From: a virus
Direction: 5' to 3' (one strand)
IMG/VR virus record: IMGVR_UViG_3300031772_000016
Coordinates: 10,805 to 74,804 of that record
Length of the DNA stretch: 64,000 nucleotides
Shown: positions 1 through 28,449 of the stretch, in pieces
How positions within the stretch are numbered: the stretch's first letter is position 1
Layout: every line of letters starts with the position of its first letter
Made by a program: the position numbers and the translations under genes
Notes under the pieces: model-generated
What the model was told of the DNA's origin: nothing
Database searches by the model: none
The model's input: only the letters and a program-made list of their open reading frames with translations

Positions 1-864
1 CCTAAGATCGGTGAGTATGCGATTAACTCGACATTTGGTGAAGATGTGAATACGGCCAATCCGGCAGCCGACGATCACAAGCGTGAAAGTACTGGTCACG
101 CTCCTCTCATCGACAAGCACGCTGCTGCTGAAGCTGTGGCGTCCGCCAGAGTGCTCGAAGCGAAGGCAGTAAAGTGTATCATCGCTGCTCAGCGTATCCT
201 CCCGGGTGCTGCTGAGGAGATGATTGAGAAGCAGGCTGCGATTTTCATGCATCTGCCTGAGGAAGGTCTGAACGCTACTCTGTCGAACCAGGAATCCCTC
301 GCAAAGATGATCTCCAAGCAGGCTTCTGAGACTTCTGAAGAGGCTAAAGCTGAGGGTGAAACTGTGAAGCAGGAAGAAGCTGAGAAGAAGTGCAATAAGG
401 AAGATGAGCAGAAGAAGGAAGCCGCTAAGAAGGTTATGGATGATAAGAAGAAGAAGCTTGAGGATCTGAAAAAGGAAGCAGCTGACCTCGAGACTGAGCT
501 TACCGCTGGTAAGAAAGATGAGAAGGTAGTAGAAGAAGAGGACAAGACTGCTGCTGTAAAGAAAGATGAGAAGGTAGTAGAAGAAGAGGACAAGACTGCT
601 GCCGTTAAGAAAGATGAGAAGGTAGTAGAAGAAGAGGATAAGACAGCTGCCGTTAAGAAAGATGAGAAGGTAGAAGAAGAGAAGGAAGAGGTTGAGGCTT
701 CTGACGGTACGCTCCTCGACCAGATCTTTGGTGAAGTGACTGCTTCCGAAAACAAGAAGGGCGCTGCAAAGCTCTCTGGTATGGTGAAGAAGCAGGCTTC
801 TGAGCAGGTCAGTGATCTGCAGGGTCTGTGGGCGACAGATCCTGACGTGAGCAACATGTTCTAA
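1..864 (+). CDS. Putative capsid scaffolding protein (5' truncated by window edge)
   Basis: Frame is open from base 1 (PKIGEYAINSTFGEDV...). K/E/A-rich coiled-coil composition; lies just upstream of the decoration and capsid genes. Confidence 0.6.
   Translation, partial: PKIGEYAINSTFGEDVNTANPAADDHKRESTGHAPLIDKHAAAEAVASARVLEAKAVKCIIAAQRILPGAAEEMIEKQAAIFMHLPEEGLNATLSNQESLAKMISKQASETSEEAKAEGETVKQEEAEKKCNKEDEQKKEAAKKVMDDKKKKLEDLKKEAADLETELTAGKKDEKVVEEEDKTAAVKKDEKVVEEEDKTAAVKKDEKVVEEEDKTAAVKKDEKVEEEKEEVEASDGTLLDQIFGEVTASENKKGAAKLSGMVKKQASEQVSDLQGLWATDPDVSNMF
511..681 (+). repeat. 48-bp in-frame tandem repeat, ~3.5 copies (KKDEKVVEEEDKTAAV)
   Basis: Near-identical units start at 511, 559, 607 and 655. 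Confidence 0.95.
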
Positions 865-971: not shown

Positions 972-1517
972 ATGATCGGTGAAGCAAGTGGTCTCGCTCC
1001 TGACAGAGGCCTAAACATCCTCTACCGCGTCTCGATGAACTCGTTGATGAATCTGACCGACACAGATCTGACCCAGAACAACTATTCGTCCGCTCAGCAG
1101 ACGGCCAATACCCGTTTGAGCGCGAATACTCCGAAGGGTCTCCTGGCTGGTTCGATCGTCAAGGCAGGTTCGGTTGCAGGTACCGTGGTCGCCTGCGATG
1201 CTACCAGCAACCCGCTCGGCGTCGTGATCAACAATGCAGTGGGATATCCGTTCGAGAGTTCGTCTGGCGTAGCCAGCGGAAAGTGCCCGTACCTCCATGG
1301 TTCTGGTACCGTGTTCTCGACAGATCTGTACGAGACGGCAGAAGTCGGCGGCGCAGCGCTTACCATCGCTTACGCAGCTGGTCTTCCTCTGTACAGCTCG
1401 GTCAACGGTCTGCTTACGACTGTTGCTGCTGGAACCGCTGTCTCAATTATCGTTGGTATCGTCCTAATCGCTCCGTCTGCTTCGGATCCGTTCATGGTAG
1501 TTCAGATGAGGATCTAA
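972..1517 (+). CDS. Putative head decoration/cement protein
   Basis: GGAGG RBS; small G/A/S/V-rich protein directly upstream of the major capsid gene. Confidence 0.6.
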   Translation: MIGEASGLAPDRGLNILYRVSMNSLMNLTDTDLTQNNYSSAQQTANTRLSANTPKGLLAGSIVKAGSVAGTVVACDATSNPLGVVINNAVGYPFESSSGVASGKCPYLHGSGTVFSTDLYETAEVGGAALTIAYAAGLPLYSSVNGLLTTVAAGTAVSIIVGIVLIAPSASDPFMVVQMRI

Positions 1518-1590
1518 ATAATGCTTGTGGGCGCTCAGATTGGAAATTCATCCGCTGAGTGCTCTTAGCAAAACCAATAGGAGGTTCTGT

Positions 1591-1682
1591 ATGGAAGGTC
1601 AGATTAGCAATGAACTGAAACAGCAGATCATTGGTGAGTACATCAAGACTGCTGCTGGCAGGCAGAAGCTTGCCGCGTCCAT
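1591..1682 (+). CDS. Major capsid protein, exon 1 (not in ORF track)
   Basis: AGGAGG RBS, then MEGQISNELKQQIIGEYIKTAAGRQKLAAS + AT. Joins in frame to exon 2 (AT|G = Met), giving a 293-aa product. Confidence 0.88.
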
Positions 1683-2727
1683 TAACTAAGCTGGATGGTG
1701 GACGTAAAATCCGGTAAATTGCTGGAAAATGCACTATAGGAGTTGATTGGCAATGAGTAGCTGGGCATCTAAATACATACAATGCGTTAAGTGCGGAACG
1801 GTGGACGTCCCGCATGAGGCTAAGGGTATGTGTACAAGGTGCTATGATAATTTACGGTATTGTAATGAAGTCAAAGCTGAAAGAAACTACACCTGTACTA
1901 ACTGTGGTAAGGTATTTTCTATTTCTCGTAGAGGAAAAAGGGCATATACTTTTTGTTCTCGATCTTGTAAGACCATTTTTCAAAGAGATGGTTTTAAAAG
2001 TAAAGAGGAAATTAGTGATGCTGTCCTTAACGTAATAAAATCAGAAAAAAGGTATCTTACCACAGAAGACGTTAGAAAGAAAGTAGGGGTTACTTCTCGA
2101 ACATTGGGTAGATTTGGTATATCTATTGTTGCTCTTAATGAGCAACTTGGATACAAATCTAAAAAAGTTTTCGAGGATCGTGTAGCTGTAATACTTTCTA
2201 AGGTGTATCCTGATTTGGTACGGGAGAAAAAATTTCCTGGATGTTTATCTCCTCGTGGTTTTTCTCTACGCTTTGATTTTTACAGTGAGGCTCAAAAAAT
2301 TCTGATTGAAGCTGATGGAATCCATCATTATTGTGGCCCCTATCATTCTGAAGAGATAGTTGTCAGAGATGGGATAAAAAATATGTGGGCTTCTGATAAT
2401 GGATTTCCTCTAATTAGAATACCGTATAAGAGATCTTTTTCAGATGATTATGTTTTAAGTTATCTCAACAAATGCCAATCTGATTCTATAGTGGACAATC
2501 AGCAGCCTAGCCTTGAGGGAAACCTCTCGGAAGGTTCAACGACTGAGGAAAGTCTAAACTCTTCTGTAGAAGAGCATGACGGTAACTCCTACTGCAGTCT
2601 GGCGACGGACTGCGGCATGCCGGAAACCAACGAACTTGTTGGTTGTGATACAGTCTGAACTCGTGGGTAACTACGAGAGGTAAGTTGAAAGACTTATCCG
2701 CTTCTGATAAGAAGTAGTAACAAATTG
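1683..2727 (+). mobile_element. Group I intron in the major capsid gene
   Basis: 5' exon ends in U. P1: exon GTCCAT pairs with IGS GTGGAC (1698-1703), U.G at the splice site. P10: GCTGGAT (1690-1696) pairs with 3' exon ATCCAGC. P AATTGCTGGA (1717), Q AATCAGCAG (2497), R GTTCAACGACT (2534), S GATACAGTCT (2647). P3: TCCGGT/GCCGGA. Terminal G at 2727. Confidence 0.93.
1747..2658 (+). CDS. Intron-encoded homing endonuclease (Zn-finger + PD-(D/E)XK Vsr/DUF559-like); start may be ATG 1753
   Basis: CxxC pairs at the N-terminus; LRFDFY...IEADGIHH...LIRIPY; AT-rich; located inside the intron. Confidence 0.8.
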   Translation: MAMSSWASKYIQCVKCGTVDVPHEAKGMCTRCYDNLRYCNEVKAERNYTCTNCGKVFSISRRGKRAYTFCSRSCKTIFQRDGFKSKEEISDAVLNVIKSEKRYLTTEDVRKKVGVTSRTLGRFGISIVALNEQLGYKSKKVFEDRVAVILSKVYPDLVREKKFPGCLSPRGFSLRFDFYSEAQKILIEADGIHHYCGPYHSEEIVVRDGIKNMWASDNGFPLIRIPYKRSFSDDYVLSYLNKCQSDSIVDNQQPSLEGNLSEGSTTEESLNSSVEEHDGNSYCSLATDCGMPETNELVGCDTV

Positions 2728-3517
2728 GATCCAGCCTCTACGCTCGCGTAGAGATTACACGTCCGTCGCACGTAAGGCGTTCCTCGTAGAGCAGCTGCCC
2801 GATGGCGCACTGCCCATCTACGATAAGGACCCCAACGTGACTGCGTTCGTGGTTGGCGAAGAGGGTGAGAACATCCTCGCGATCACCAAGCCCCGCCGTG
2901 TGATTTTCCCCCTGTTCGAGATCGCCTCGAACCCGGAGATCCCTCTCACACAGGTCAAAGAGCGTCGGTTCGACTTGATCGAGCGTGCTCAGGACCTTGC
3001 GAAGGCTCAGATCCAGGCTGCTGAGGATGCCCGTGCATTTGACGTCATGGACGCAGTTTCCCAGAATGGTTTCGACAACCTGGGTTCTGCTTACGTGAAC
3101 GCTCAGGTGAACGCGATTGCTCCTCTCACTCCTCCGAACCTGATCGATGCGTTTGCTCGTATCGAGACACACGATCTGAGAGTGGCTAGAGTGTTCATGA
3201 ATGCCCTTGATTTTGCTGACCTCAGAAAATGGGGACGGGACGTTTTTGACATCGAGAGCCAGGCTCAGATTCTCAAGACTGGTTTGATGGGCTCCGTGTG
3301 GGGCGCTCAGATCATCGTCTCGAGAAAGGTCACTCCGGGCTATGCGTACGTTTGCGCAGAGCCTGAGTTCTTCGGCAGGATTCCGGTGAGGACCGAACTA
3401 ACAGTACTCTCAGCAGACGATCCCAAGGCAAGAAGGATCGGATTTAGCGTCTTTGAAAATCTCGGGATCGGTTGCCACAATCCGTTGGCGATCACCAGAG
3501 TTAAGATTGCTCGCTAA
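2728..3517 (+). CDS. Major capsid protein, exon 2 (HK97-like fold likely)
   Basis: In frame with track ORF 2837..3517 and extends it upstream (IQPLRSRRDYTSVARKAFLVEQLPDGALPIYDKD...). Follows scaffold and decoration genes; strong terminator after it. Confidence 0.85.
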
Positions 3518-3540
3518 GTTTTAGCTAAGTCGTTGGTCTA

Positions 3541-3570
3541 AAGGCCGCCTATGAATAGGCGGCCTTTTTT
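3541..3570 (+). terminator. Intrinsic terminator
   Basis: AAGGCCGCCTAT-GA-ATAGGCGGCCTTTTTT. Confidence 0.9.
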
Positions 3571-3681
3571 ATGCTTGCACTGCGTATAAGTACCTATCTA
3601 TTTCTTGTTGATAGATTCCCATAAAATAGCCTGCCAACATGGGTAGCGATCTCTCATCAGCAAGGTTTTTTGCATTTTTAC

Positions 3682-3710
3682 TGGACTCTTGGAGGAAAGT
3701 ATAGTATATT
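3682..3710 (+). promoter_or_regulatory. Putative sigma70-type promoter
   Basis: TGGACT-17 bp-TATATT, 7 nt before ATG 3718. Confidence 0.5.
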
Positions 3711-3717
3711 ACGAGGT

Positions 3718-6330
3718 ATGAAAGAAACAATCGTGTCTTTAGATGAAGACAGCTTGAAAAAGTTGTACTGTGTATTTGGGCTAACTGCTAGGGAGATAGG
3801 CAATCTTGTGGGTCTTACAGAGAGTGCTATCTTACTTAGGCTAAAAAAGGTTAACCTAACACCAGGCTGTCGAGCTGTAAGAGATACAGTAGTCGAGATA
3901 GAGTACACTGGACAAAGATTTGATGCTAAAAATCTTTTGACCAAAGAAGCTTTAAATGATCTCGTAAAAAAAGGCATGTCCGACAAAGAAATAGGCTCTT
4001 TGTTTAACATGACTGGAGAGGGTGTCGCTTATAGAAGGAAACAATGGAGTTTATCTTCTGCCAAAGACAACTATAATTCTAGACGTTTGTTGGAGGCTGC
4101 TAGTAAAGAGTCGATAGAGGCAGACTACTATAGCATGACCGTTGACGAGTTTTCCGAAAAATATGCTGTTAGTAAAATAGTTTGGATACCTTATATAGAC
4201 AGCCTAGGGATTGCCAGAAAAAAGGATAAGAGAATAAGTGAGTATCCTGTTCTGACTCCTGAGCAGACTCGTCTAATAATTGGTGGGATGCTGGGTGATG
4301 GAGGTATAACAAACGACGGCAGGTACTATGAGTTTCATGCTAAAAAACAAGAGAATTATCTGAGAAAAAAACACAGAATCCTGGCACCATATAGCACGTC
4401 TATAACGCCACAGGATGATGGGTCTGGGTTCAGGTTTGACACTATATCTCACCCGGTATTTCATGAGTTTAGAAAACTTTTCTATAAAGAAGGGGTAAAA
4501 GGCAAGTTTATTCCAGTAGATTTTATTGTGAAAAATTGGAGTGATGATATTTTAGCCTATTGGTTTTTTGATGATGGCTATATCGATGATGTAACAGGCG
4601 ATATCTGCATCTCCAATTTTTGTCCTGATTTTGATAATTTACGATCTTTGGCCTCTTTTTTAGATGGGAAATATCAGTGGGGGTTTCATTGCGGTACGGC
4701 AGGGGATAGCATATACCGTGTCTCTGTTTCTAAAGGATATGCCCGTAATTTCGGTAATTTGTTGATAAAGTACGCTACACCCGACGTATACTATAAAGTG
4801 CCTGAAATTTCTTTAACTGTAGATCATGTGAGCGAGCTTACCCTTGAAGAATTCTCTGACATAAAGCCTAAATTTTACAGGCTGACAGATGATGTCCAAA
4901 AGATCTCTATAGAGAACATAGTGTTTGATTACTATAGAAAGAGAGGGTTTCCTTTTTCGACTCTATCTGTTGAACGACAAAATTACATTTTAAAATCATT
5001 TATGGAGGGGTCAGTATCTTGTTGCAACAACACGATATCATACAGCACGTCAGGGATGCCTCTTTGTGAGAAGTTTTTTCCAAATATATACAAAGCAAGC
5101 AGAAAAGGATATAAGGCACCTTTGGATTTGTGGGATGATGATAATTTCCTTAAATCTTTGATTCGTAATAGGCTCAGATACGCAGACAGACTGACAACCG
5201 CGGCTATGAGGACTGGCATAAAGCTGACAAAGGCATGTGTCTCCAATTTTAAGCCTACTATAGCTAAGTATGTGTACTCTAATTACTGTTCGAACGGTAG
5301 GGTTCTTGACTACGCTTGCGGTTTCGGGTCAAGGATGCTGGCAGCAATGTCATTAGGCTTGGAGTATGTTGGCTACGAACCTTCTGTGGACACCTATGAC
5401 AACCTTATGAAGTTTGGAGATTTTCTTAGCAGCAGAACCTCTGGTACTTTTAAGATCTTAAACGAGGGTAGTGAAACAGGAATATACAGGGAAGGTTATT
5501 TTAGTTTGGCGTTCTCATCCCCGCCTTATTTTGATTTTGAGTGCTATTCTAATGATCCAGGTCAAAGTGTGGTCAGATTCAGTACATTTGAAGCCTGGTT
5601 AGAGGGTTATTGGAAACAGACTATGATCAATTGCTATAGAGCATTGACACCTGATGGCTTTTTTGGTATGTGTTTCAGTACAAAGGTAGCTAAGGAGCAG
5701 ATTGCTTATACTTTGTCTCAGGCTACCGACATTGGCTACTATTATTGTGGAGGGTATAAGGTACCTTTTAAGCAAGTTTTCTCGGGAAGCGACTCTTATG
5801 AGGTTATTTTGATTTTTTCGAAAGTTCCGCCAAAAGAAACCCCTATAGATATAAACAGATTTATTCAAGAGGTACCCTACAAAAAAGAAAGCCTGTTTAG
5901 TGAGGTAAAACGTAATAAAAGAGAATCTAATACCGAGGCTATAAACGAGGCTGTAGTAAAATTCAAGGAGTTGTCCGCTGTTGTGGGTACATCACGGGAC
6001 ACCTACGATGACCCGAAGCTACTAGGTGTCCCAGCACATGTTTTAGAGCACCATTATGGTGGCTGGAACAGTTTCGTAATAGCTTGTGGAGTAGAGCCGG
6101 GGTACGTCGCAAAGAACCCCGTGGAGCATGTTAAAGAGTATCTGTTGGAGTGTTTGTCGTGTGGGGAGACTCTGTCTTTTTATGAGTATGAGAAGAGGAC
6201 GAAGATACCTGCTACGAGGCTCAAGAGAATTTTCAATGCGGGTAGACCGTACGCACATTTGAAAGAGCGACTTTTTTATGTAGCTCTTGACGTGTCTCTG
6301 CATGAAGAGTTTTTGAAGAATTTCGAATAG
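3718..6330 (+). CDS. HTH-LAGLIDADG endonuclease-DNA amino-methyltransferase fusion (copy 1)
   Basis: Repeated N-terminal HTH segments. LAGLIDADG motifs IIGGMLGDG and LAYWFFDDG. MTase motif I VLDYACGFGSR and motif IV SSPPY. C-terminal GGWNSFVIACG resembles an endonuclease-associated repeat. ATG 3718 preferred to the track TTG at 3670. Confidence 0.85.
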   Translation: MKETIVSLDEDSLKKLYCVFGLTAREIGNLVGLTESAILLRLKKVNLTPGCRAVRDTVVEIEYTGQRFDAKNLLTKEALNDLVKKGMSDKEIGSLFNMTGEGVAYRRKQWSLSSAKDNYNSRRLLEAASKESIEADYYSMTVDEFSEKYAVSKIVWIPYIDSLGIARKKDKRISEYPVLTPEQTRLIIGGMLGDGGITNDGRYYEFHAKKQENYLRKKHRILAPYSTSITPQDDGSGFRFDTISHPVFHEFRKLFYKEGVKGKFIPVDFIVKNWSDDILAYWFFDDGYIDDVTGDICISNFCPDFDNLRSLASFLDGKYQWGFHCGTAGDSIYRVSVSKGYARNFGNLLIKYATPDVYYKVPEISLTVDHVSELTLEEFSDIKPKFYRLTDDVQKISIENIVFDYYRKRGFPFSTLSVERQNYILKSFMEGSVSCCNNTISYSTSGMPLCEKFFPNIYKASRKGYKAPLDLWDDDNFLKSLIRNRLRYADRLTTAAMRTGIKLTKACVSNFKPTIAKYVYSNYCSNGRVLDYACGFGSRMLAAMSLGLEYVGYEPSVDTYDNLMKFGDFLSSRTSGTFKILNEGSETGIYREGYFSLAFSSPPYFDFECYSNDPGQSVVRFSTFEAWLEGYWKQTMINCYRALTPDGFFGMCFSTKVAKEQIAYTLSQATDIGYYYCGGYKVPFKQVFSGSDSYEVILIFSKVPPKETPIDINRFIQEVPYKKESLFSEVKRNKRESNTEAINEAVVKFKELSAVVGTSRDTYDDPKLLGVPAHVLEHHYGGWNSFVIACGVEPGYVAKNPVEHVKEYLLECLSCGETLSFYEYEKRTKIPATRLKRIFNAGRPYAHLKERLFYVALDVSLHEEFLKNFE

Positions 6331-6340
6331 GGTTTCTCAC

Positions 6341-6466
6341 ATGAACTATGAAAATATTGTTTTACAAAAGCAGAATGTAAAAGCTCTTGAGTTCTACAAA
6401 AGACAAGGCTATGTTGAGCAGGGTGAGAAAAACGACTGCGTAATTTTCAGTAAAAGGATTGTCTGA
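6341..6466 (+). pseudogene. 41-aa C-terminal fragment of a GNAT acetyltransferase
   Basis: MNYENIVLQKQNVKALEFYKRQGYVEQG... contains the GNAT N-x-x-A-x-x-F-Y-x-x-x-G-Y motif but no acetyl-CoA motif A. Confidence 0.5.
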
Positions 6467-7185
6467 TGATTTCTTTATCTACCTGGAATATGGACTATTG
6501 GAAGCACAGGACAAAGTTTCGAGAGTCCTGCGCATATTATTTAGAGGATATCGACTCTGACATCAAAATATTTCAAGAGGCACTACCTGATACCACTGTT
6601 TTCAAGAAGGAGAGTTTAGTGTGGCACGCTATAGGAGATAAAAGAACATGGGGATCTGGGATATACTGTGAAAAGTATCCTATACGAGAGTACCCTTTCA
6701 AAACGGATCTTTACGGCTCTGTCACTGCTGCAGAGATCAGTATAAAGCCTGATTTTAGTTTGGTTGTTGTGTCCCTCTATGGGATTTTAGAGTGTATAAA
6801 TGGGTCGTTTTACTCGATCTCTAATCTACATAGAATTTTTTCAGATTTGACAGGGACTATAGAAGGCGGCAAAACAAAAAAGAGAGTTGTTATCGCTGGA
6901 GATTTTAATGCCAGCCTGCAGTTTGATGAGAGGCAGCCTGTGAAGTCACACCAGGTGTTCTTCGATCGGTTGAGAGCTTGGGGACTGCACAACTGTTTTG
7001 ATGGGCACTACTCTAATTTCATTCAAACCTATAGAAACAAAAGGAGTAGCGTGCCGTGGCAGAGTGATTACATTTTTGTAAGTGGCTTTTTGGTACCTTT
7101 TTTGAAATCTTGTGTCGTGATAGAAAACGAGAAAGTTATGCGTATGTCTGATCACAACATAGTCCACATTGAAATAGACATCTAA
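6466..7185 (+). CDS. Endonuclease/exonuclease/phosphatase (ExoIII-like) family protein
   Basis: STWN, FQE, GDFN, DYIF and SDH motifs. Confidence 0.9.
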   Translation: MISLSTWNMDYWKHRTKFRESCAYYLEDIDSDIKIFQEALPDTTVFKKESLVWHAIGDKRTWGSGIYCEKYPIREYPFKTDLYGSVTAAEISIKPDFSLVVVSLYGILECINGSFYSISNLHRIFSDLTGTIEGGKTKKRVVIAGDFNASLQFDERQPVKSHQVFFDRLRAWGLHNCFDGHYSNFIQTYRNKRSSVPWQSDYIFVSGFLVPFLKSCVVIENEKVMRMSDHNIVHIEIDI

Positions 7186-7198
7186 AAGGAGACTCATT

Positions 7199-7492
7199 AT
7201 GACTCGCCCCAAGAAAGCCTGCGTAGAGATTCATCTCGGGTATTTTAAGCAAGGAGATGACCTTGCACACTGCCTTAAAGAAACTAAAACACCTAAGGCT
7301 GCTTTTAAGATGCACGCAGAAATTATGCGATCTGTAGCTGAGCATCTCGACAAAGTGGCTGCTTTGGTAGCAAAACATAAGGTAGAGGTGCAGGCAGACA
7401 CGCATATGATTCAAATTTGTTGTGACAAGAAAATGGCCAGCACTCTTATTAAGGCAGAGCTGGCTGATAAAGATCCTATGGAAGACGAGTAG
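7199..7492 (+). CDS. Hypothetical protein
   Basis: AGGAG RBS, 97 aa. Confidence 0.75.
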   Translation: MTRPKKACVEIHLGYFKQGDDLAHCLKETKTPKAAFKMHAEIMRSVAEHLDKVAALVAKHKVEVQADTHMIQICCDKKMASTLIKAELADKDPMEDE

Positions 7493-7503
7493 CCCGCCCC
7501 CGC

Positions 7504-7519
7504 TAATACTCTCCTAATA
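7504..7519 (+). promoter_or_regulatory. Putative late-promoter motif TAATAnTCTnnTAATA
   Basis: TAATACTCTCCTAATA; one of 11 copies upstream of + strand genes. Confidence 0.6.
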
Positions 7520-7563
7520 AAATCTCCGATAGATATAACTATATATCTACTGGAGATCCTCTC

Positions 7564-7749
7564 TTGAAGAAGTCCCTCGTCAGTCTCACTACTCGCCAGG
7601 ACACGATTCTTCGGTCATTATCTAAGGATCTGGAGATCTCATTGTCTGAATTGGTCCGTAGGGCTGTGGACAGGTATATAGATGACCTTGTGAAAAGCGG
7701 GGCTATAGAGAAGCGGCCTTCTGGTAGTGTTGGTTTGTTGAAGCTATAA
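7564..7749 (+). CDS. Ribbon-helix-helix (CopG-like) protein
   Basis: SLVSLT...ISLSELVRRAVDRY pattern; GGAG RBS; TTG start. Confidence 0.75.
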   Translation: MKKSLVSLTTRQDTILRSLSKDLEISLSELVRRAVDRYIDDLVKSGAIEKRPSGSVGLLKL

Positions 7750-7762
7750 TAGTCTTCTAATA
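7747..7762 (+). promoter_or_regulatory. Putative late-promoter motif
   Basis: TAATAGTCTTCTAATA. Confidence 0.6.
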
Positions 7763-7804
7763 ACAAAATGTAATTGTCTGTGCTATATCCATATAGAGTT
7801 TTTC

Positions 7805-8497
7805 ATGCTGACAACAACTAAGCTGCGGAAAATAGCTGCAGATGTCCGAGTCTACAGTGAGAAAGTAGACGTCATAGGTCATTTGAAGGACTCCTATGAT
7901 ATAGAGGTTGACCCTGATACGGACGATGAGTTTGTTAGTGTGTTGAGCGACAGCCTGGATAGATTGCCTGCTGATTTGGTGCGTGATTGTGGGATAAAGA
8001 CATTAGGTTTTGAGGATCTTGGTCCCTCCAAGGAGTACTACCCCAATCACGGTAAATACAAGGACAACACTCTTTACATCAATCATCAGATCATAGAAGA
8101 TCCTACGCTGATTGTAGACCCGGATAGCGGGTCATCTGTGAATAAGTTTGATCAGACACTGTACCATGAGTTGGGTCACGGGTGGGATGAGGTCAACGGC
8201 AGTAATGGTACAGAGCTGTCTCTGCAAAAAGATTGGTTGAGTTTGTCTAAGTGGTCGGAGAAACCTGTACCTGGGTACAAGCGTGTGATCATACAAGAGC
8301 CTGGATCCCCAGTTATGAAGGGGGAGTATTACTACTCTCCAGACGCGGGGTTTACACGGTTTTATGCACGCAGAAATCCATGGGATGATTTTGGGGACTC
8401 TTTCTCTTATTACGTGGCTGGCCTCAAGAGTTTTCTTCCTGCGAACAAAGTAGCCTATTTCGATAGCAAACTCGGAAAATATTTCAAAGGACGGTGA
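7805..8497 (+). CDS. Zincin-like metallopeptidase-domain protein
   Basis: TLYHELGH (HExxH) and a downstream NPWDDFGDSF motif. Confidence 0.65.
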   Translation: MLTTTKLRKIAADVRVYSEKVDVIGHLKDSYDIEVDPDTDDEFVSVLSDSLDRLPADLVRDCGIKTLGFEDLGPSKEYYPNHGKYKDNTLYINHQIIEDPTLIVDPDSGSSVNKFDQTLYHELGHGWDEVNGSNGTELSLQKDWLSLSKWSEKPVPGYKRVIIQEPGSPVMKGEYYYSPDAGFTRFYARRNPWDDFGDSFSYYVAGLKSFLPANKVAYFDSKLGKYFKGR

Positions 8498-10695: not shown

Positions 10696-11917
10696 TACAG
10701 TGTCCTCGAAAATAGAGAAAATAGTCCAGGAAGCCAGAGACTCTGACAAGGTCAAAGTCTTTTTGGGAGGGTCTTGTAAGGATAACTCCTGGCGTGAGAG
10801 TGTTCAGAAGGAGTTTGGGGACTATTTCTTTTTCATCGACCCTTTCGATGAGGATTGGGATCCTGAGGACAATATCTATGACGAGCTCGCGGGTATGGTG
10901 AACGCTGACTATATCGTGTTCTACAGGGGTGGGGATTTATCAGAGCGTGAGAAGGATTTCCTGGATAATATAGGGCGTAGGGGTGAGTTGGTGAAGGAGT
11001 TTGAGGATATGGGTAAACTCAAGGCATTCCTGAAGGATATCAAGAGTAAGAAGGTGCGGCTGGCGAGTGTGTCCTCTGTACTCCGTAGGTGTGCTGGGGA
11101 TTTGTGTAAGGACGCATTCCCGTACACGCATAATCAGGGTGATTTGTTTTTGGAGAAGTTAGATCCTGCCGATAAAGCGAACGTAGTAAAAGACCTAGAG
11201 CGTGGTGTGAGTATAATTATCCCAGAGGGATTACCGGTAAAGCCAGGGAAAAAGACTGTGGGAGAGGTCGTAAATAAGTATGATTTTGATAAGGAGGAGT
11301 ATGAGTCTTTTGTACGGCCCGCTCTATATAAGACTTTTCCTGTACTCGAACCTACTCTCGGGTATGACCAAATAAAACACACCTATATGCAAAAGAATGC
11401 CAAAGTAGGTGTCATCCACAGCAAAGCGTCTACCCAGGTAGATCTCCCAGAGCAGCTCGCCCTGGAGGTCATGGCATGGGGTAAGACGAATATACCCGAT
11501 AAGGATCTATACACAAAGGACGACAAAGGTCGTGAGGACGAGATTCACGTTACTTTGTTCTATGGTATCACAGAGGATGCCGAGGATAAACTACGTGAGC
11601 TGCTATCTGGGGTGAAACCGTTTGAGTGTCGTCTGGGGCTTGTCACTACGTTCAAGGATAAGAAAGAGTGTGACGTCATCAAGATAGACGTAGAGTCTTC
11701 GGAGATGGTGAAACTCCATTATTTGATCCGTGAGAGTGTAAAGAACAAGAATGAATATCCTACATACGCCTCCCATATCACGGTGGCGTACGTGAAAAAA
11801 GGTAAAGCAGATAGAGTACTGGGTGATGATAGGTTCCGGGGAGCGACATTCAAGGTCACTGAGATAGTTTACTCGACGAAAGATCACAATAAAATAAAGA
11901 TCCCACTCGGGTCATAA
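10688..11917 (+). CDS. Nucleoside 2-deoxyribosyltransferase-like domain fused to a 2H phosphoesterase (Acb1/T4 gp57B-like)
   Basis: N-terminal KVFLGGS...WRE...FIDPF...ADYIVFY; C-terminal paired HxT motifs HVTLFYG and HITVAY. Confidence 0.7.
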   Translation: MRDTVSSKIEKIVQEARDSDKVKVFLGGSCKDNSWRESVQKEFGDYFFFIDPFDEDWDPEDNIYDELAGMVNADYIVFYRGGDLSEREKDFLDNIGRRGELVKEFEDMGKLKAFLKDIKSKKVRLASVSSVLRRCAGDLCKDAFPYTHNQGDLFLEKLDPADKANVVKDLERGVSIIIPEGLPVKPGKKTVGEVVNKYDFDKEEYESFVRPALYKTFPVLEPTLGYDQIKHTYMQKNAKVGVIHSKASTQVDLPEQLALEVMAWGKTNIPDKDLYTKDDKGREDEIHVTLFYGITEDAEDKLRELLSGVKPFECRLGLVTTFKDKKECDVIKIDVESSEMVKLHYLIRESVKNKNEYPTYASHITVAYVKKGKADRVLGDDRFRGATFKVTEIVYSTKDHNKIKIPLGS

Positions 11918-24871: not shown

Positions 24872-25768
24872 ATGGCAGTAGTTTTTTATCCTGGACAGAC
24901 CCTAGGACAGGATGACCTCAAGATATCCATCCGTGATAGCGGCGGGCAGTACGTGGACCCGTTCTACATTCGGTACTCCCTGTTCGATAACACCACAGGC
25001 GTCGAGGTGCTCATCGGAGCCCCTGACAGAATCCCCGCTACCACAGGCACTGGGATGTTCTATGTGAACGCCACTCTACCTCTGGACGCAAATATCGGTG
25101 ACTGGGTGGTCCGGTGGAATTTCAGGGAGACCGCTATCTCCCCCCTGGTACAGGTAGCACAGGAGTTCGGGCTGGTGAAGATAGAGGTGATCAAGAGCAT
25201 CACGGGCAACGACACGGGTGATTTACTTTTGAGAAGATTGAGGATATTGTTAAGAGATTTTCATCCAGATCGCAATTATAGATTTCGCCCCCCGTCAAGT
25301 GAGAAATTTCTGCAGGCTCAGGCACAAGTATTCGGGTACCTGTGGGAGGATGAAGAGCTCTACGAGTTCGTATTGATGGCCATAGATGATTTTAATACAG
25401 CGCCTCCTGTCACTGGTATAGACATAAACAACATGCCTGACAGATGGAGAACCACGCTGCTTATGAGGGCTGCGGGCATGGCGTGCGGTGCTATGACCGT
25501 TAACCAAATTGCCGATGAATTCAACTACTCAATCTCTGGAGTCTCTCTCAGCATTGAGCGCTCGTCCAAGTATGAGTCTATGAAAAGGAACTTCTACGAA
25601 GAAGCAGATAAGTCCCGGGATCTCGCTAAGCGCTCGATAAAGATTATAAAAGGGCTGAAACAAGCTCGTTATGGTGTGGGCATCAGTTCGGCATTAGGAC
25701 CTTATTCTAAACCTGGCACTCAGTCAAGAAGAAATTTCGCTGGTGGTGGAGGTGGTGGTTGGTCATAA
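24872..25768 (+). CDS. Putative head-tail adaptor/neck protein
   Basis: Beta-rich N-domain, then RLRILLRD...WEDEEL...FNYSISGVSLSI resembling head-completion adaptors; position fits. Confidence 0.5.
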   Translation: MAVVFYPGQTLGQDDLKISIRDSGGQYVDPFYIRYSLFDNTTGVEVLIGAPDRIPATTGTGMFYVNATLPLDANIGDWVVRWNFRETAISPLVQVAQEFGLVKIEVIKSITGNDTGDLLLRRLRILLRDFHPDRNYRFRPPSSEKFLQAQAQVFGYLWEDEELYEFVLMAIDDFNTAPPVTGIDINNMPDRWRTTLLMRAAGMACGAMTVNQIADEFNYSISGVSLSIERSSKYESMKRNFYEEADKSRDLAKRSIKIIKGLKQARYGVGISSALGPYSKPGTQSRRNFAGGGGGGWS

Positions 25769-25776
25769 GGACCCAG

Positions 25777-25805
25777 TTGACTTTAGTCCGGTATTGTGGT
25801 ATATT
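25777..25805 (+). promoter_or_regulatory. Sigma70-type promoter with extended -10
   Basis: TTGACT-17 bp-TATATT, with TGn before the -10. Confidence 0.7.
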
Positions 25806-25825
25806 CAGTAGTACTGGAGGCCACA

Positions 25826-28102
25826 ATGACCGGACCAAAAAGTGGAATTACTGCGGACAGAAAAGACACCGTCAAGTTGGGTTTCATTGTAGAGCACTAC
25901 AGCTCTATGTCTCGTGATGAGCTTGCCTCTCACTTGAAAGAGACTCCCCGTTGGATAAAGCGACAAATAAGGCTTCTTAAAGACTCCGGAAGAATCCAGC
26001 CTAAGCGATTAGTCCCCGAGCGTATACTTTCGGAATCAGATTGGACAGATGAAATAAAGCATAAGGCGATCTCTCTCAGGAGAGATCGCCTTATGTCGAC
26101 TGGTGCTATTTGTGAGGTGCTTGAAAAAGAGTTTTCTTTTGCCGTACCAGACTATACGTTAGAGTTCTGGTTCAGGAAATTTGGGTGTGAGTCCAGAAGT
26201 AAGCTGGATTGGCTGGAAGAGTTTTTTCCTCCTAATAAAATGATAGAGTTCATAGACAGCGACTACAGAGTAAAGGATATCAGTGATATCATTCTAAAGA
26301 CTCATGGAGTATATATATCTGATGATATCGTACAAGAATATCTGCAATCGAAAGGAATAGAGAGTCAGCGAAACAGGCAGGTCAGGTTAGTGCGTGACAA
26401 AGCTAGTGAATTTTCTAAAGAGTGGTTGAGTGATCAGGTACAGGGTCATGCAGGGTTGTCCGGGTTGACCGAAAAAATGGGTGTGTCTAAAACAGTGGTG
26501 ATGAATAGACTGAGAGAAGAGGGACTCAGTCTGATTAAGCATAGAAAAATATGGTCTGATAATTTGGAGACTCTCAGCGATCTTATGGCGGCACGACCCC
26601 CTATTACAAAAAAGATATCTGAAGAAGATAGACACCAGATGCTTTTGGGATGGTTGCTTGGAGACGGCCATTTAGATTTTAACGGTAGATTAGTTGTTAA
26701 TCACTCGCTTGCACAGATAAGCTATTTGTTTGTCAAACATCAGGTGCTGAGGGGCAGCGTGTCTAATATAGTTACTGTACCGTCATCACATTTTTCGGGA
26801 GAGGGAACTCATTTTGGAGGTAAAGAGCAGATAGGGATATCGTGCCCTGGGTTTGAGTCGTATGTTCAATACCTGAACGAGGACGGGTCAAAAAATTTTG
26901 ATAAAATAGTGCGTGAACTTAACGACCTTGGGTGGGCATGCTATTTTATGGATGATGGAAGCTATTTTTTTGATAAGCAAATAATGGCTATAAATGGTAG
27001 ATTAGCTGCTGAGTTTGAAAATAGATACCAATTTGGCAGCATAGTGCATGAGCATAATTTGGAGGTGTTCGGTATAAAGCCAGAGTATCTAATACCTTGT
27101 ATGTTGTATAAAACACCCGTGGAAAGCAGAAATCTCGGCAATTATTGGGAAACAATATTTCCCGAACTGTTCAACGTGTCTATAAAAGATGATCTGGATC
27201 TTAGCTTCGTGAACAGGCATGTAGCAGAAAATGTGCCTGGCATAATGACCCAGGTTGTGGAGTACTATCACGGTAGAGGGTTTCCTGTGTACCACATCGC
27301 GGATGTGTATCTTACAAAGGAGTGGGAAAAGCTACAAAAGTTCAAAGCTGATCTGTTGTGGAAAAACGACAATACAATGCGCTATCTGGCTGTGGGTAAT
27401 GCTCTATACAAGCATTTCATGCCGCACATGTCTGAGGCGAAGTACAGAAACGTATCCCCAAAGCAAACATTCGATAGCTTTTCTACATTCTTGACCGTTC
27501 TGGAGTATACCCTTAAAACCAAGAAATCCATACTGCCTGATTTTGTGCACGACAACCTCGTGCATTTTAATGGGGGTGTGGTCGGTTTCCCTTGTTCGGT
27601 AGCCAAGGCTGTTACAGATCGGTATTGTCCTGTAGGAGGGTCTGTTGTAGACCCTTGCGCTGGGTGGGGTGGTCGTCTGCTGGGTGTGTCGTCTGCAGGT
27701 AGGTTTTACTACGGATTCGAGCCGTGGGACAAGACCTACGATGGTTTGACTCGTATCATAGCACACTTTGGTCTGAACTCTTCTGTGCAGAAGTCTGAGT
27801 TTGATAGTACCAAAGCACCCCTTCTGTGTGATTTTATCCTCACGTCCCCGCCTTATGTGGATCTGGAGATATACGGTAGACCCTTTAGCAAAAGTGACTG
27901 GCTGTCACTAATTAAACGCATATTCAGTTATGCAGAGAAGAGCCTTACTCCTGGCGGGTACTTAATACTTAACCTGCCCGGGTATCTTAAAACATTGTTG
28001 CCTCAAACTCTCCTCAAGGAAGCAGCGCCTGTATATTGGAATACATCCTCCAAAGTAAGAACCCTCGATAAAGCGGAATGCCTGTACATCTGGCACAGGT
28101 AA
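25826..28102 (+). CDS. HTH-LAGLIDADG endonuclease-DNA amino-methyltransferase fusion (copy 2)
   Basis: HTH segments; LLGWLLGDG and WACYFMDDG; motif I VVDPCAGWGGR and motif IV TSPPY; GGAGG RBS before ATG 25826. Confidence 0.85.
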   Translation: MTGPKSGITADRKDTVKLGFIVEHYSSMSRDELASHLKETPRWIKRQIRLLKDSGRIQPKRLVPERILSESDWTDEIKHKAISLRRDRLMSTGAICEVLEKEFSFAVPDYTLEFWFRKFGCESRSKLDWLEEFFPPNKMIEFIDSDYRVKDISDIILKTHGVYISDDIVQEYLQSKGIESQRNRQVRLVRDKASEFSKEWLSDQVQGHAGLSGLTEKMGVSKTVVMNRLREEGLSLIKHRKIWSDNLETLSDLMAARPPITKKISEEDRHQMLLGWLLGDGHLDFNGRLVVNHSLAQISYLFVKHQVLRGSVSNIVTVPSSHFSGEGTHFGGKEQIGISCPGFESYVQYLNEDGSKNFDKIVRELNDLGWACYFMDDGSYFFDKQIMAINGRLAAEFENRYQFGSIVHEHNLEVFGIKPEYLIPCMLYKTPVESRNLGNYWETIFPELFNVSIKDDLDLSFVNRHVAENVPGIMTQVVEYYHGRGFPVYHIADVYLTKEWEKLQKFKADLLWKNDNTMRYLAVGNALYKHFMPHMSEAKYRNVSPKQTFDSFSTFLTVLEYTLKTKKSILPDFVHDNLVHFNGGVVGFPCSVAKAVTDRYCPVGGSVVDPCAGWGGRLLGVSSAGRFYYGFEPWDKTYDGLTRIIAHFGLNSSVQKSEFDSTKAPLLCDFILTSPPYVDLEIYGRPFSKSDWLSLIKRIFSYAEKSLTPGGYLILNLPGYLKTLLPQTLLKEAAPVYWNTSSKVRTLDKAECLYIWHR

Positions 28103-28111
28103 CTCTCCCGC

Positions 28112-28127
28112 TAATTTTCTATTAATA
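28112..28127 (+). promoter_or_regulatory. Putative late-promoter motif
   Basis: TAATTTTCTATTAATA. Confidence 0.6.
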
Positions 28128-28155
28128 AAGTCTCACAAACAGATTGTGAGGCTAT

Positions 28156-28449
28156 ATGTCCATAGAAATCCAGTATTTCGGTATCACCGGCATGATAGGT
28201 CCTGGTAGTAATGATTTTCTACCTCTCCTCACCGGCCCTTCCACTGGCGTGGCTGGCGGGTATGACGTGGCTGTGGACCCCATAGACGGCCCTGCTCAGC
28301 GCTACGGTATAGATTTTGGTGTGACCTCATACGGGGGCGCTGCTGCGGTGGCACTAAATATAACGGGGTCCGACCTCAAGGACGTCCAGAATAACTACGG
28401 TCACGGGGTCACAGGGGTTTTGAATCTGCGTGTAGTCTACAACTACTGA
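28156..28449 (+). CDS. Small Gly/Thr-rich putative virion protein
   Basis: GITG, LTG, STG, ITG and GVTG motifs. Confidence 0.65.
   Translation: MSIEIQYFGITGMIGPGSNDFLPLLTGPSTGVAGGYDVAVDPIDGPAQRYGIDFGVTSYGGAAAVALNITGSDLKDVQNNYGHGVTGVLNLRVVYNY

Follow-up and report, generated by a model that had tools for sequence, protein, structure and literature searches.

Two fusion genes in a phage structural region

We analysed a 64-kb window (positions 10,805 to 74,804) of the 74.8-kb IMG/VR virus record IMGVR_UViG_3300031772_000016; the coordinates given for it are those of the window. It carries two open reading frames (ORFs), A and B, in which a LAGLIDADG nuclease domain and an SPPY methyltransferase are joined in one chain with helix-turn-helix (HTH) modules (Table 1). 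CheckV put the completeness of the record at 16%, and the full phage genome should therefore measure about 470 kb, similar to its complete relatives (466,729 and 469,617 bp). Window DNA is present in many sediment metagenomes, and none of the 24 sediment runs listed is an RNA run containing it.

Both ORFs were found where a preliminary description had placed them, and they are the only members of the family in the record. The ATG codons at 3718 and 25826 were chosen over upstream TTG and GTG codons, because promoter-like sites and GAGG/GGAGG directly precede them. ORF A and ORF B align over 550 residues with 23% identity (E = 2e-23), which marks them as distant paralogues. The architecture that they had been said to share was recovered: the motifs named for it all occur in both proteins (LLGDG, MDDG, VVDPCAGWGGR, and TSPPY in ORF B), in agreement with the profiles and the predicted structure. 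The AlphaFold model of ORF A, built on 80 homologues, was confident (pLDDT 91.7, predicted template-modelling score 0.67) and, together with a LAGLIDADG_2 match above the cut-off, confirmed the domains. It contains a disordered stretch after the methyltransferase, followed by a helical C-terminal domain at about residues 739–870. This domain weakly resembles the homing-endonuclease-associated repeat PF18780, and it is missing from many orthologues.

An assembly artefact as the source of the fusion, a possibility raised at the outset, was ruled out. A 2320-nucleotide (nt) contig from another sediment run is equal to window 3401–5720 with zero differences and spans the domain junction, and the fusion architecture is common to more than 60 independent homologues. 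In a library of 1.84 billion proteins, ORF A matched 167 representatives at E ≤ 1e-30 and 1951 at E ≤ 1e-10. The family thus sampled is large, uncharacterised, and co-evolving, and it combines a free-standing LAGLIDADG homing endonuclease with a phage amino-methyltransferase. Our literature search found no paper describing it.

The 80 fused homologues that we aligned were 21–87% identical to ORF A. Comparison with the 87%-identical orthologue L003 gave ratios of nonsynonymous to synonymous substitution rates (dN/dS) of 0.08 for the HTH array, 0.06 for LAGLIDADG, 0.07 for the N-domain, 0.055 for the methyltransferase, and 0.13 for the C-terminal domain, at a dS of about 0.9. All five domains are under strong purifying selection. 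The mean pairwise identity over 62 orthologues was 41–51%, even from domain to domain. This evenness and the low dN/dS values indicate that the whole protein is under selection.

Table 1. Features of the two fusion genes and their cassettes (window coordinates).
Feature	Position	Strand	Description or basis
ORF A	3718..6330	+	870 amino acids (aa); HTH array, LAGLIDADG, methyltransferase N-domain, SPPY methyltransferase, C-terminal helical domain
HTH array (DNA-binding), ORF A residues 1-175	3718..4242	+	three 3-helix units in the AlphaFold secondary structure; weak Pfam/PHROG HTH and DNA-binding matches
LAGLIDADG nuclease domain, monomeric two-motif (D194, D286), ORF A residues 176-360	4243..4797	+	PF03161, Foldseek, PADLOC
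Methyltransferase helical N-domain (YYRKRGFP), ORF A residues 361-500	4798..5217	+	PHROG 12517; also in stand-alone methyltransferases
Rossmann S-adenosylmethionine (SAM) methyltransferase, ORF A residues 501-705	5218..5832	+	NFKP, motif I VLDYACGFGSR, motif II E554, motif IV SSPPY
Helical C-terminal domain, ORF A residues 706-870	5833..6330	+	weak likeness to PF18780
ORF B	25826..28102	+	758 aa; paralogue of the same architecture, without the C-terminal domain
Major capsid gene exon 2, left homology arm of cassette A	2728..3517	+	PHROG 2522
Intrinsic terminator after the capsid gene, inside the cassette	3540..3567	+	12-bp stem and T run
Two overlapping sigma-70-like promoter matches before ATG 3718	3677..3710	+	consensus match only; kept in L003
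Variable cassette region A	3518..7804	+	capsid stop to the next conserved gene (7805-8497); homology break points, synteny
Cassette B	25765..28153	+	fills the gap exactly, from the stop of 24872-25768 to the ATG of 28156-28449; blastn break points against L161
Promoter-like site before ATG 25826	25777..25805	+	10/12 match, extended -10

The nuclease domain

Pfam LAGLIDADG_2 (PF03161; cut-off 25) matched residues 186–333 of ORF A (E = 1.5e-14, 54.7 bits) and residues 271–383 of ORF B (E = 1.7e-6, 28.6 bits). The acidic residues of the two motifs, LGDG (D194) and FDDG (D286), had been described as intact. They are present and, with the adjoining Gly (columns G193-D194 and D286-G287), invariant in 80/80 fused homologues. 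Both aspartates are also kept in 64/64 complete LAGLIDADG domains from the capsid site, fused or unfused. Foldseek aligned the nuclease part of ORF A with I-WcaI (6x1j) and I-SceI (1r7m), with template-modelling scores of 0.68–0.70, E = 1e-8, and 20–22% identity, and placed the remainder of the protein with SAM methyltransferases. AlphaFold and Foldseek agree on a pseudo-dimeric alpha-beta-beta-alpha-beta-beta-alpha fold, and the PADLOC HEase model matched the same domain (E = 1.5e-10).

Rfam detected no intron over 1400–7900 apart from the match at 2418–2677, which is part of an intron in the upstream capsid gene. Neither ORF has an intein/Hint match in Pfam, and helices directly flank the LAGLIDADG domain of ORF A. 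An intron-encoded or intein origin of ORF A was rejected on these grounds, the ORF lying between a terminator and the next gene. We infer that ORF A and ORF B are free-standing homing-endonuclease genes with a monomeric nuclease of the I-SceI type, whose activity is predicted.

The methyltransferase part

Motif I and the SPPY motif IV were found in both ORFs, as first described, and are conserved in 76–80 of the 80 homologues. For motif I (D531-x3-G-x-G), the counts were 80/80 for D531, 79/80 for G535, and 78/80 for G537; for motif IV (S-P-P-[YF]), they were 76/80 for S601, 79/80 for both P602 and P603, and 80/80 for Y/F604. The acidic motif II residue, E/D554, is kept in 80/80. The stretch that the preliminary description had taken for a shared linker turned out to belong to the enzyme: YYxxRGFP and NF[KR]PxxAK are its N-terminal domain and pre-motif-I segment, and both occur in stand-alone enzymes. 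There, the YY..GFP and NF[KR]P..AK motifs are also conserved, with G-F-P nearly invariant. The whole segment 361–705 exists alone as a protein of about 330 aa (PHROG 12517) in Vibrio, Bacteroides, and Staphylococcus phages and on hundreds of IMG/VR contigs.

A profile of 58 N-domain and methyltransferase sequences matched the Thermus DNA methylase TTHA0409 (2zie, E = 9e-7) and the DNA N4-cytosine methyltransferase N4CMT (8s9n, E = 8e-4), in permuted order, with motif I before motif IV. Foldseek and VIA-align searches with a model of the same two domains (pLDDT 93.8) returned only generic Rossmann and tRNA amino-methyltransferase matches, with no DNA methyltransferase ranked at the top, and nothing for the helical N-domain. 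The NCBIfam search added nothing useful. The fused methyltransferase is an exocyclic-amine methyltransferase. DNA is its likely substrate, judging from these sequence links and the DNA-binding partner domains. The homologue P0075 was considered as a fusion to another methyltransferase class (N6_Mtase). Its 25-bit matches overlap the same motif IV region, and it was discarded as an independent fusion.

Two insertion sites

Both ORFs had been described as lying directly behind a conserved virion gene. This holds for ORF A, which follows the major capsid gene (PHROG 2522, E = 5.8e-39), but the supposed neck adaptor before ORF B was not confirmed. That gene (24872–25768) is an unnamed gene of the structural region, with no significant family match in profile searches and only a "hypothetical protein" in the ESM Atlas. 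At site A, the capsid stop codon (3515–3517) is followed by the terminator, the promoter-like hexamers, and the start codon. The terminator hairpin differs in each relative's cassette. DNA homology with the relatives L130 and L096 ends at 3517/3523, which is the capsid stop, whereas homology with L003 runs through the fusion gene, and cassette region A is common with L003 up to 6348 only. At site B, the DNA of the closest relative, L161, matches the window up to 25764 and again from 28154 onward.

Several observations concern the contents of these sites. Between ORF A and the next conserved gene lies an ORF of the endonuclease/exonuclease/phosphatase family (6466–7185; PF03372, 35.5 bits, above the cut-off), which is not at that place in L003, L083, L092, or L095; small ORFs at 7199–7492 and 7564–7749 come after it. 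Contigs of the sediment runs X10, X11, and X13 depart from the window at 6345, just past ORF A, and continue like L003's different downstream gene. They also diverge inside the capsid intron at 1729, 2494, and 2679. Both the right cassette edge and the intron are therefore polymorphic in the phage population. In place of cassette B, L161 has an AT-rich ORF (6944–7646 of that locus) that looks by eye like a family-4 uracil-DNA glycosylase. In L166 (3069–5448), the homologue of gene 24872–25768 is split (residues 1–223 and 218–298) by about 1.5 kb, maybe an insertion or an intron.

Presence, absence, and exchange among relatives

Eighty loci around capsid homologues (70–99% identical) were scanned with domain hidden Markov models (HMMs) built from the fusion family. 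Among the 51 loci with at least 3 kb downstream of the capsid gene, 17 carried a fusion, 15 a LAGLIDADG-only ORF, and 19 neither. Homologues beside conserved genes and relatives with an empty site were thus both found, at the capsid site as well as at site B. Empty at site A are L097 and L098: a terminator comes after the capsid gene, then a small conserved ORF, then the next conserved gene. L095 has a fusion gene between the terminator and this small ORF. Two different fusions stand in tandem in L093 and L129, and up to four LAGLIDADG ORFs in L116. Frameshifted or truncated copies were seen in L106/L109, L112, L115, and L118. Site B is occupied in L163, L165, and L166 (45–49% identity), empty in L164 and L167, taken by an unrelated gene in L161, and reduced to a remnant in L162. 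Three relatives of 98–100% completeness (316–470 kb) have no member of the fusion family anywhere in the genome.

L083 and L084 encode identical capsid and minor-capsid proteins and carry fusion genes from different deep clades; at the DNA level, the two loci cease to be homologous right at the capsid stop codon. The tree of the fusion genes strongly conflicts with that of the capsid genes. The capsid data reject the fusion-tree clade (WIN, L003, L103, L129) in the approximately unbiased (AU) test (p = 1.8e-62), and the fusion data reject the capsid bipartition (p = 3.3e-6). Comparison of the genomes shows the cassettes to be dispensable, and to be gained, lost, and exchanged at the same site between related phages. 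The fusion cassettes show homing-like mobility. The earlier proposal of a homing element is well supported by fixed-site presence and absence, empty-site relatives, tandem and decayed copies, and the tree conflict.

Two loci have kept traces of the capsid 3′ end to the right of a cassette. In L109 (identical to L007), a second capsid 3′ end lies at the right edge of the cassette (4413–4504; 44 nt, 95% identity). In L114 (5908–6081), the first 42 codons of a fusion gene are joined in frame to the last 16 capsid codons, and this joined gene is a deletion derivative. A search of all loci with tblastn and blastn-short found capsid-tail remnants in L109/L007 and L114 only, and none in the window. 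The remnants suggest that at least one insertion took place within the last ~40 capsid codons, with duplication of the tail, which would mark this region as the break site.

History of the fusion

The LAGLIDADG and methyltransferase trees have at least six matching clades, among them one lineage for A and another for B. The match of the clades makes the fusion an old one, with co-diverging domains. In the methyltransferase tree, 57 stand-alone enzymes form one tight, well-supported clade, and the fused enzymes lie outside it on long branches. LAGLIDADG ORFs that lack the fusion fall within the diversity of the fused ones; the starred branches force at least seven changes, some of the "unfused" rows being cut by contig ends. 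According to the trees, divergence of the two domains has been rapid and joint, and the methyltransferase has been lost repeatedly.

Ten long proteins ending in a methyltransferase of this family were inspected for the partner domain. LAGLIDADG (PF03161 or PF14528) was present in eight, and another nuclease type in none. A 751-aa ORF behind the capsid gene of L144 (6299–8551) ends in the N-domain and methyltransferase; its first ~430 residues matched no Pfam family and no LAGLIDADG or HTH model, and they may carry a different partner domain. L134 encodes an ORF with HTH, N-domain, and methyltransferase, without LAGLIDADG. We considered it as a recent "LAGLIDADG-empty allele", but it is only 31–43% identical to the fused forms, so the two are not a recent deletion/insertion pair.

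Proposed homing with a fused methyltransferase

ORF A and ORF B are probably mobile and active nuclease–methyltransferase cassettes. Each is a self-contained unit, with its own terminator and promoter-like site, placed directly after the stop of a conserved gene of the virion region, and its HTH and repeat DNA-binding modules flank the nuclease–methyltransferase pair. On co-infection, the nuclease would cleave the allele that lacks the cassette, within or close to the 3′ end of the conserved neighbour gene. The break would then be repaired from the carrier genome and the cassette copied in, an intron-less homing in the style of the T4 seg/mob genes. The fused methyltransferase would modify the same site in the carrier's own DNA. 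Self-methylation would let the element target an unchanged, strongly constrained coding sequence without self-cutting, as a single-chain "homing restriction-modification" unit.

Homing cassettes with a self-methylating fused methyltransferase make, as a whole, the best explanation that we can offer, and we give it an even chance of being right. Self-protection of the target site, as the role of the methyltransferase, is put forward with some reserve. We favor it because it fits the covalent coupling of the two enzymes, their co-divergence, the constrained neighbour gene, and the block of LAGLIDADG enzymes by methylation; target methylation inhibits enzymes derived from I-CreI (PMC3827243). The earlier proposal of an enzyme that would methylate the element's own allele and cut unmethylated rivals is thus plausible. 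The fuller picture is more tentative still: a homing endonuclease with its own antidote, whose methyltransferase guards a long target in unalterable capsid sequence while cassette-free rivals are cut and converted.

Several results weigh against this explanation. Both the nuclease and the methyltransferase activities are predictions from sequence. Pfam N6_N4_Mtase (PF01555) scored 24.2 bits for ORF A and 21.0 bits for ORF B, under the gathering score of 26.7 bits, which some family members pass (P0069, 47.3 bits; P0086, 39.7 bits). The nearest solved structures of the methyltransferase part are the tRNA m2G enzymes Trm11 (Z = 18.5), TrmN, and Trm14 (Z = 17–18.5). The methyltransferase was lost at least seven times, with LAGLIDADG-only ORFs persisting at the same site with intact aspartates, and protection by methylation is therefore not indispensable. 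Comparison of the last 66 nt of the capsid gene among fusion, LAGLIDADG-only, and empty genomes revealed no class-specific pattern that would mark a target or a resistant allele; synonymous sites in this stretch vary in all three classes.

The main rival takes the methyltransferase for cargo. The cassette would consist of a homing nuclease and a useful passenger, an ordinary orphan methyltransferase with a short motif of its own. The passenger would shield the phage genome from host restriction and turn a selfish cassette into a beneficial one, its fusion to the nuclease serving only co-transfer and co-expression. The same family is common as a stand-alone gene in many phages, the fused enzymes retain their own N-domain as a possible target-recognition part, and the methyltransferase can go without the LAGLIDADG ORF going. 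However, the fused methyltransferases have a much higher rate of evolution than the stand-alone clade and change together with their LAGLIDADG partner, which is unexpected for a generic anti-restriction enzyme. Nor would cargo account readily for the exclusive pairing with LAGLIDADG in 8/10 long proteins (0/10 with another nuclease type), or for several distinct fusions in tandem at one site, and we consider it unlikely. The mobile unit could also be a single domain, with LAGLIDADG as an in-frame selfish insertion in an HTH-methyltransferase gene, homing into LAGLIDADG-less alleles and tolerated in the protein. The LAGLIDADG of Taj_79 (PMC9957025) and the HNH insertion of ShiLan, in another frame (PMC11855218), are published analogues, and the ORF of L134 has the LAGLIDADG-less form. 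Yet genomes differ by the entire cassette, which spans the interval between the capsid stop and the conserved gene that follows; LAGLIDADG-only ORFs hold the same site, and the distance of the L134 form leaves no recent empty allele. Such a domain-level parasite is improbable.

A single-chain restriction enzyme similar to Type IIC/IIG would break down the DNA of the host or superinfecting DNA at many sites, the phage's own being protected by the methyltransferase, and no homing would be involved. A nuclease and a methyltransferase in one chain follow the logic of these types, and PADLOC returned weak matches to Type II methyltransferases and MADS mad2. The nuclease is, however, a complete I-SceI-like monomer with its own DNA-binding saddle, and such enzymes read long sites. 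No LAGLIDADG restriction enzyme has been described (PMC9957025), and sporadic, exchanged cassettes at fixed sites are a signature of homing. We regard this proposal as slightly more improbable than a domain-level parasite. Lowest in our estimate, and very improbable, is a non-catalytic LAGLIDADG, which would only bind DNA at long sites, to direct the methyltransferase or to regulate late genes. Nuclease-inactive LAGLIDADG proteins with HTH exist, as in WhiA, and ORF A and ORF B are located among late structural genes. On the other side, the metal-binding aspartates are invariant in all fused homologues and in all complete domains of the capsid site, and the gene is dispensable and exchanged between genomes. 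The same invariance makes the alternative of the preliminary description, a methyltransferase steered by the LAGLIDADG domain, the less likely of its two proposals.

Relation to known systems

I-SceI and I-WcaI (PF03161) share the fold of the window nucleases, with two LAGLIDADG helices that each end in a catalytic Asp-Gly. They are intron-encoded proteins of about 230 aa without a second enzyme, whereas the window genes are free-standing and intergenic, with HTH arrays and a methyltransferase in the same chain. The free-standing homing genes of T4-like phages (seg, GIY-YIG; mob, HNH) are sporadic intergenic cassettes with a presumed target in the neighbouring conserved gene (SegF/SegG/MobE), and their self-immunity comes from differences in the target-site sequence. 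The window cassettes resemble them in their place between conserved genes and in their sporadic distribution among relatives, but the T4 genes belong to other nuclease families and lack a fused methyltransferase. WhiA, a conserved cellular regulator, also joins a LAGLIDADG scaffold to HTH DNA-binding modules. It has lost the catalytic residues, whereas the aspartates of the window family are invariant and the gene is accessory and mobile.

The Type IIC/IIG enzymes (MmeI, Eco57I, BcgI) likewise unite a nuclease and an SAM methyltransferase in one protein, so that the nuclease is never without its antidote. These are bacterial defence genes with PD-(D/E)XK nucleases and short sites; in the window, the nuclease is LAGLIDADG, with no PD-(D/E)XK or HNH, and it lies in a phage structural module and behaves in a homing-like manner. 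The beta-class N4-cytosine/N6-adenine DNA methyltransferases (PF01555; TTHA0409, 2zie; N4CMT, 8s9n) have in common with the window enzymes the SPPY motif IV region and the motif I region "FP..A..L...G..VLDPF.G.G". The window methyltransferases differ in the permuted motif order, in the extra helical N-domain, and in the sub-threshold Pfam score.

According to the preliminary description, no characterised single-chain combination of this kind is known. It was right, although an in-silico precedent exists in another methylase family. Gosselin et al. (2023) reported a non-intein, in-frame LAGLIDADG domain in nine cluster F actinophage methylases (Taj_79) of unknown function, and weighed a selfish element against a single-peptide restriction-modification enzyme, without experiments and without evidence of transfer (PMC9957025). 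Arsenault et al. (2025) described an HNH gene that lies concealed in a different reading frame of a phage methylase (PMC11855218). The Taj_79 family resembles ORF A and ORF B in placing a non-intein LAGLIDADG and a DNA methylase in one predicted phage polypeptide. A tblastn search with both ORFs against 50,697 phage records hit no actinophage, and there was no detectable similarity to the Taj_79 family. In contrast to those nine methylases, the window family comprises well over a hundred clusters; its fusion is old, the fused domains co-diverge, and the gene moves as a fixed-site cassette.

Free-standing homing endonucleases must spare their own genome, and the known solution is a changed target sequence. 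If our explanation is true, the attached methyltransferase would be a second, epigenetic solution to self-cutting, and it would explain how these elements can adjoin and aim at capsid sequence that cannot change. The family would link, in nature, two classes of selfish nuclease system, homing endonucleases and restriction-modification, and would contain the first LAGLIDADG-based enzyme similar to restriction-modification systems. Long-site nuclease and methyltransferase specificities would have diversified as pairs in well over a hundred of its lineages, and the family could be drawn on for them. From a practical point of view, this would offer many natural, co-evolved pairs on a well-predicted scaffold. 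Even if the methyltransferase is cargo, the surroundings of the capsid gene in huge phages are a busy arena for mobile nuclease genes. The window itself is an example: its capsid gene contains an endonuclease-bearing intron and is directly followed by a cassette.

The surroundings of the capsid gene

The major capsid gene is split in the window (1591–3517), with exon 1 at 1591–1682 (MEGQISNELKQQIIGEYIKTAAGRQKLAAS) and exon 2 at 2728–3517. The 1045-nt insert (1683–2727) is missing from the relatives, and L096 and L130 are contiguous there. Joining the exons restores ...LAAS-M-IQPLR..., as in the relatives. The last base of the 5′ exon is T and that of the insert is G, the pattern seen in group I introns. 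The Rfam match to Intron_gpI within the insert was weak (E = 0.011, 23 bits; gathering score 50). The insert contains an ORF (1747–2658) for a 303-aa homing endonuclease with a zinc ribbon and a DUF559-like domain (PHROG 559, 9084).

The spacer between the minor-capsid gene (homologue of window 972–1517) and the capsid gene is a second hotspot. It is occupied by an HTH-LAGLIDADG ORF in L084 (4897–5638) and by a fragment of the window's intron endonuclease in L145 (2084–2212). In L130 (2882–4061), the minor-capsid gene is present as a tandem duplicate. The ORF before the minor-capsid gene of the window (1–864) contains three exact tandem copies of a 16-residue acidic-lysine repeat (KKDEKVVEEEDKTAAV) and may encode a scaffold-like protein.

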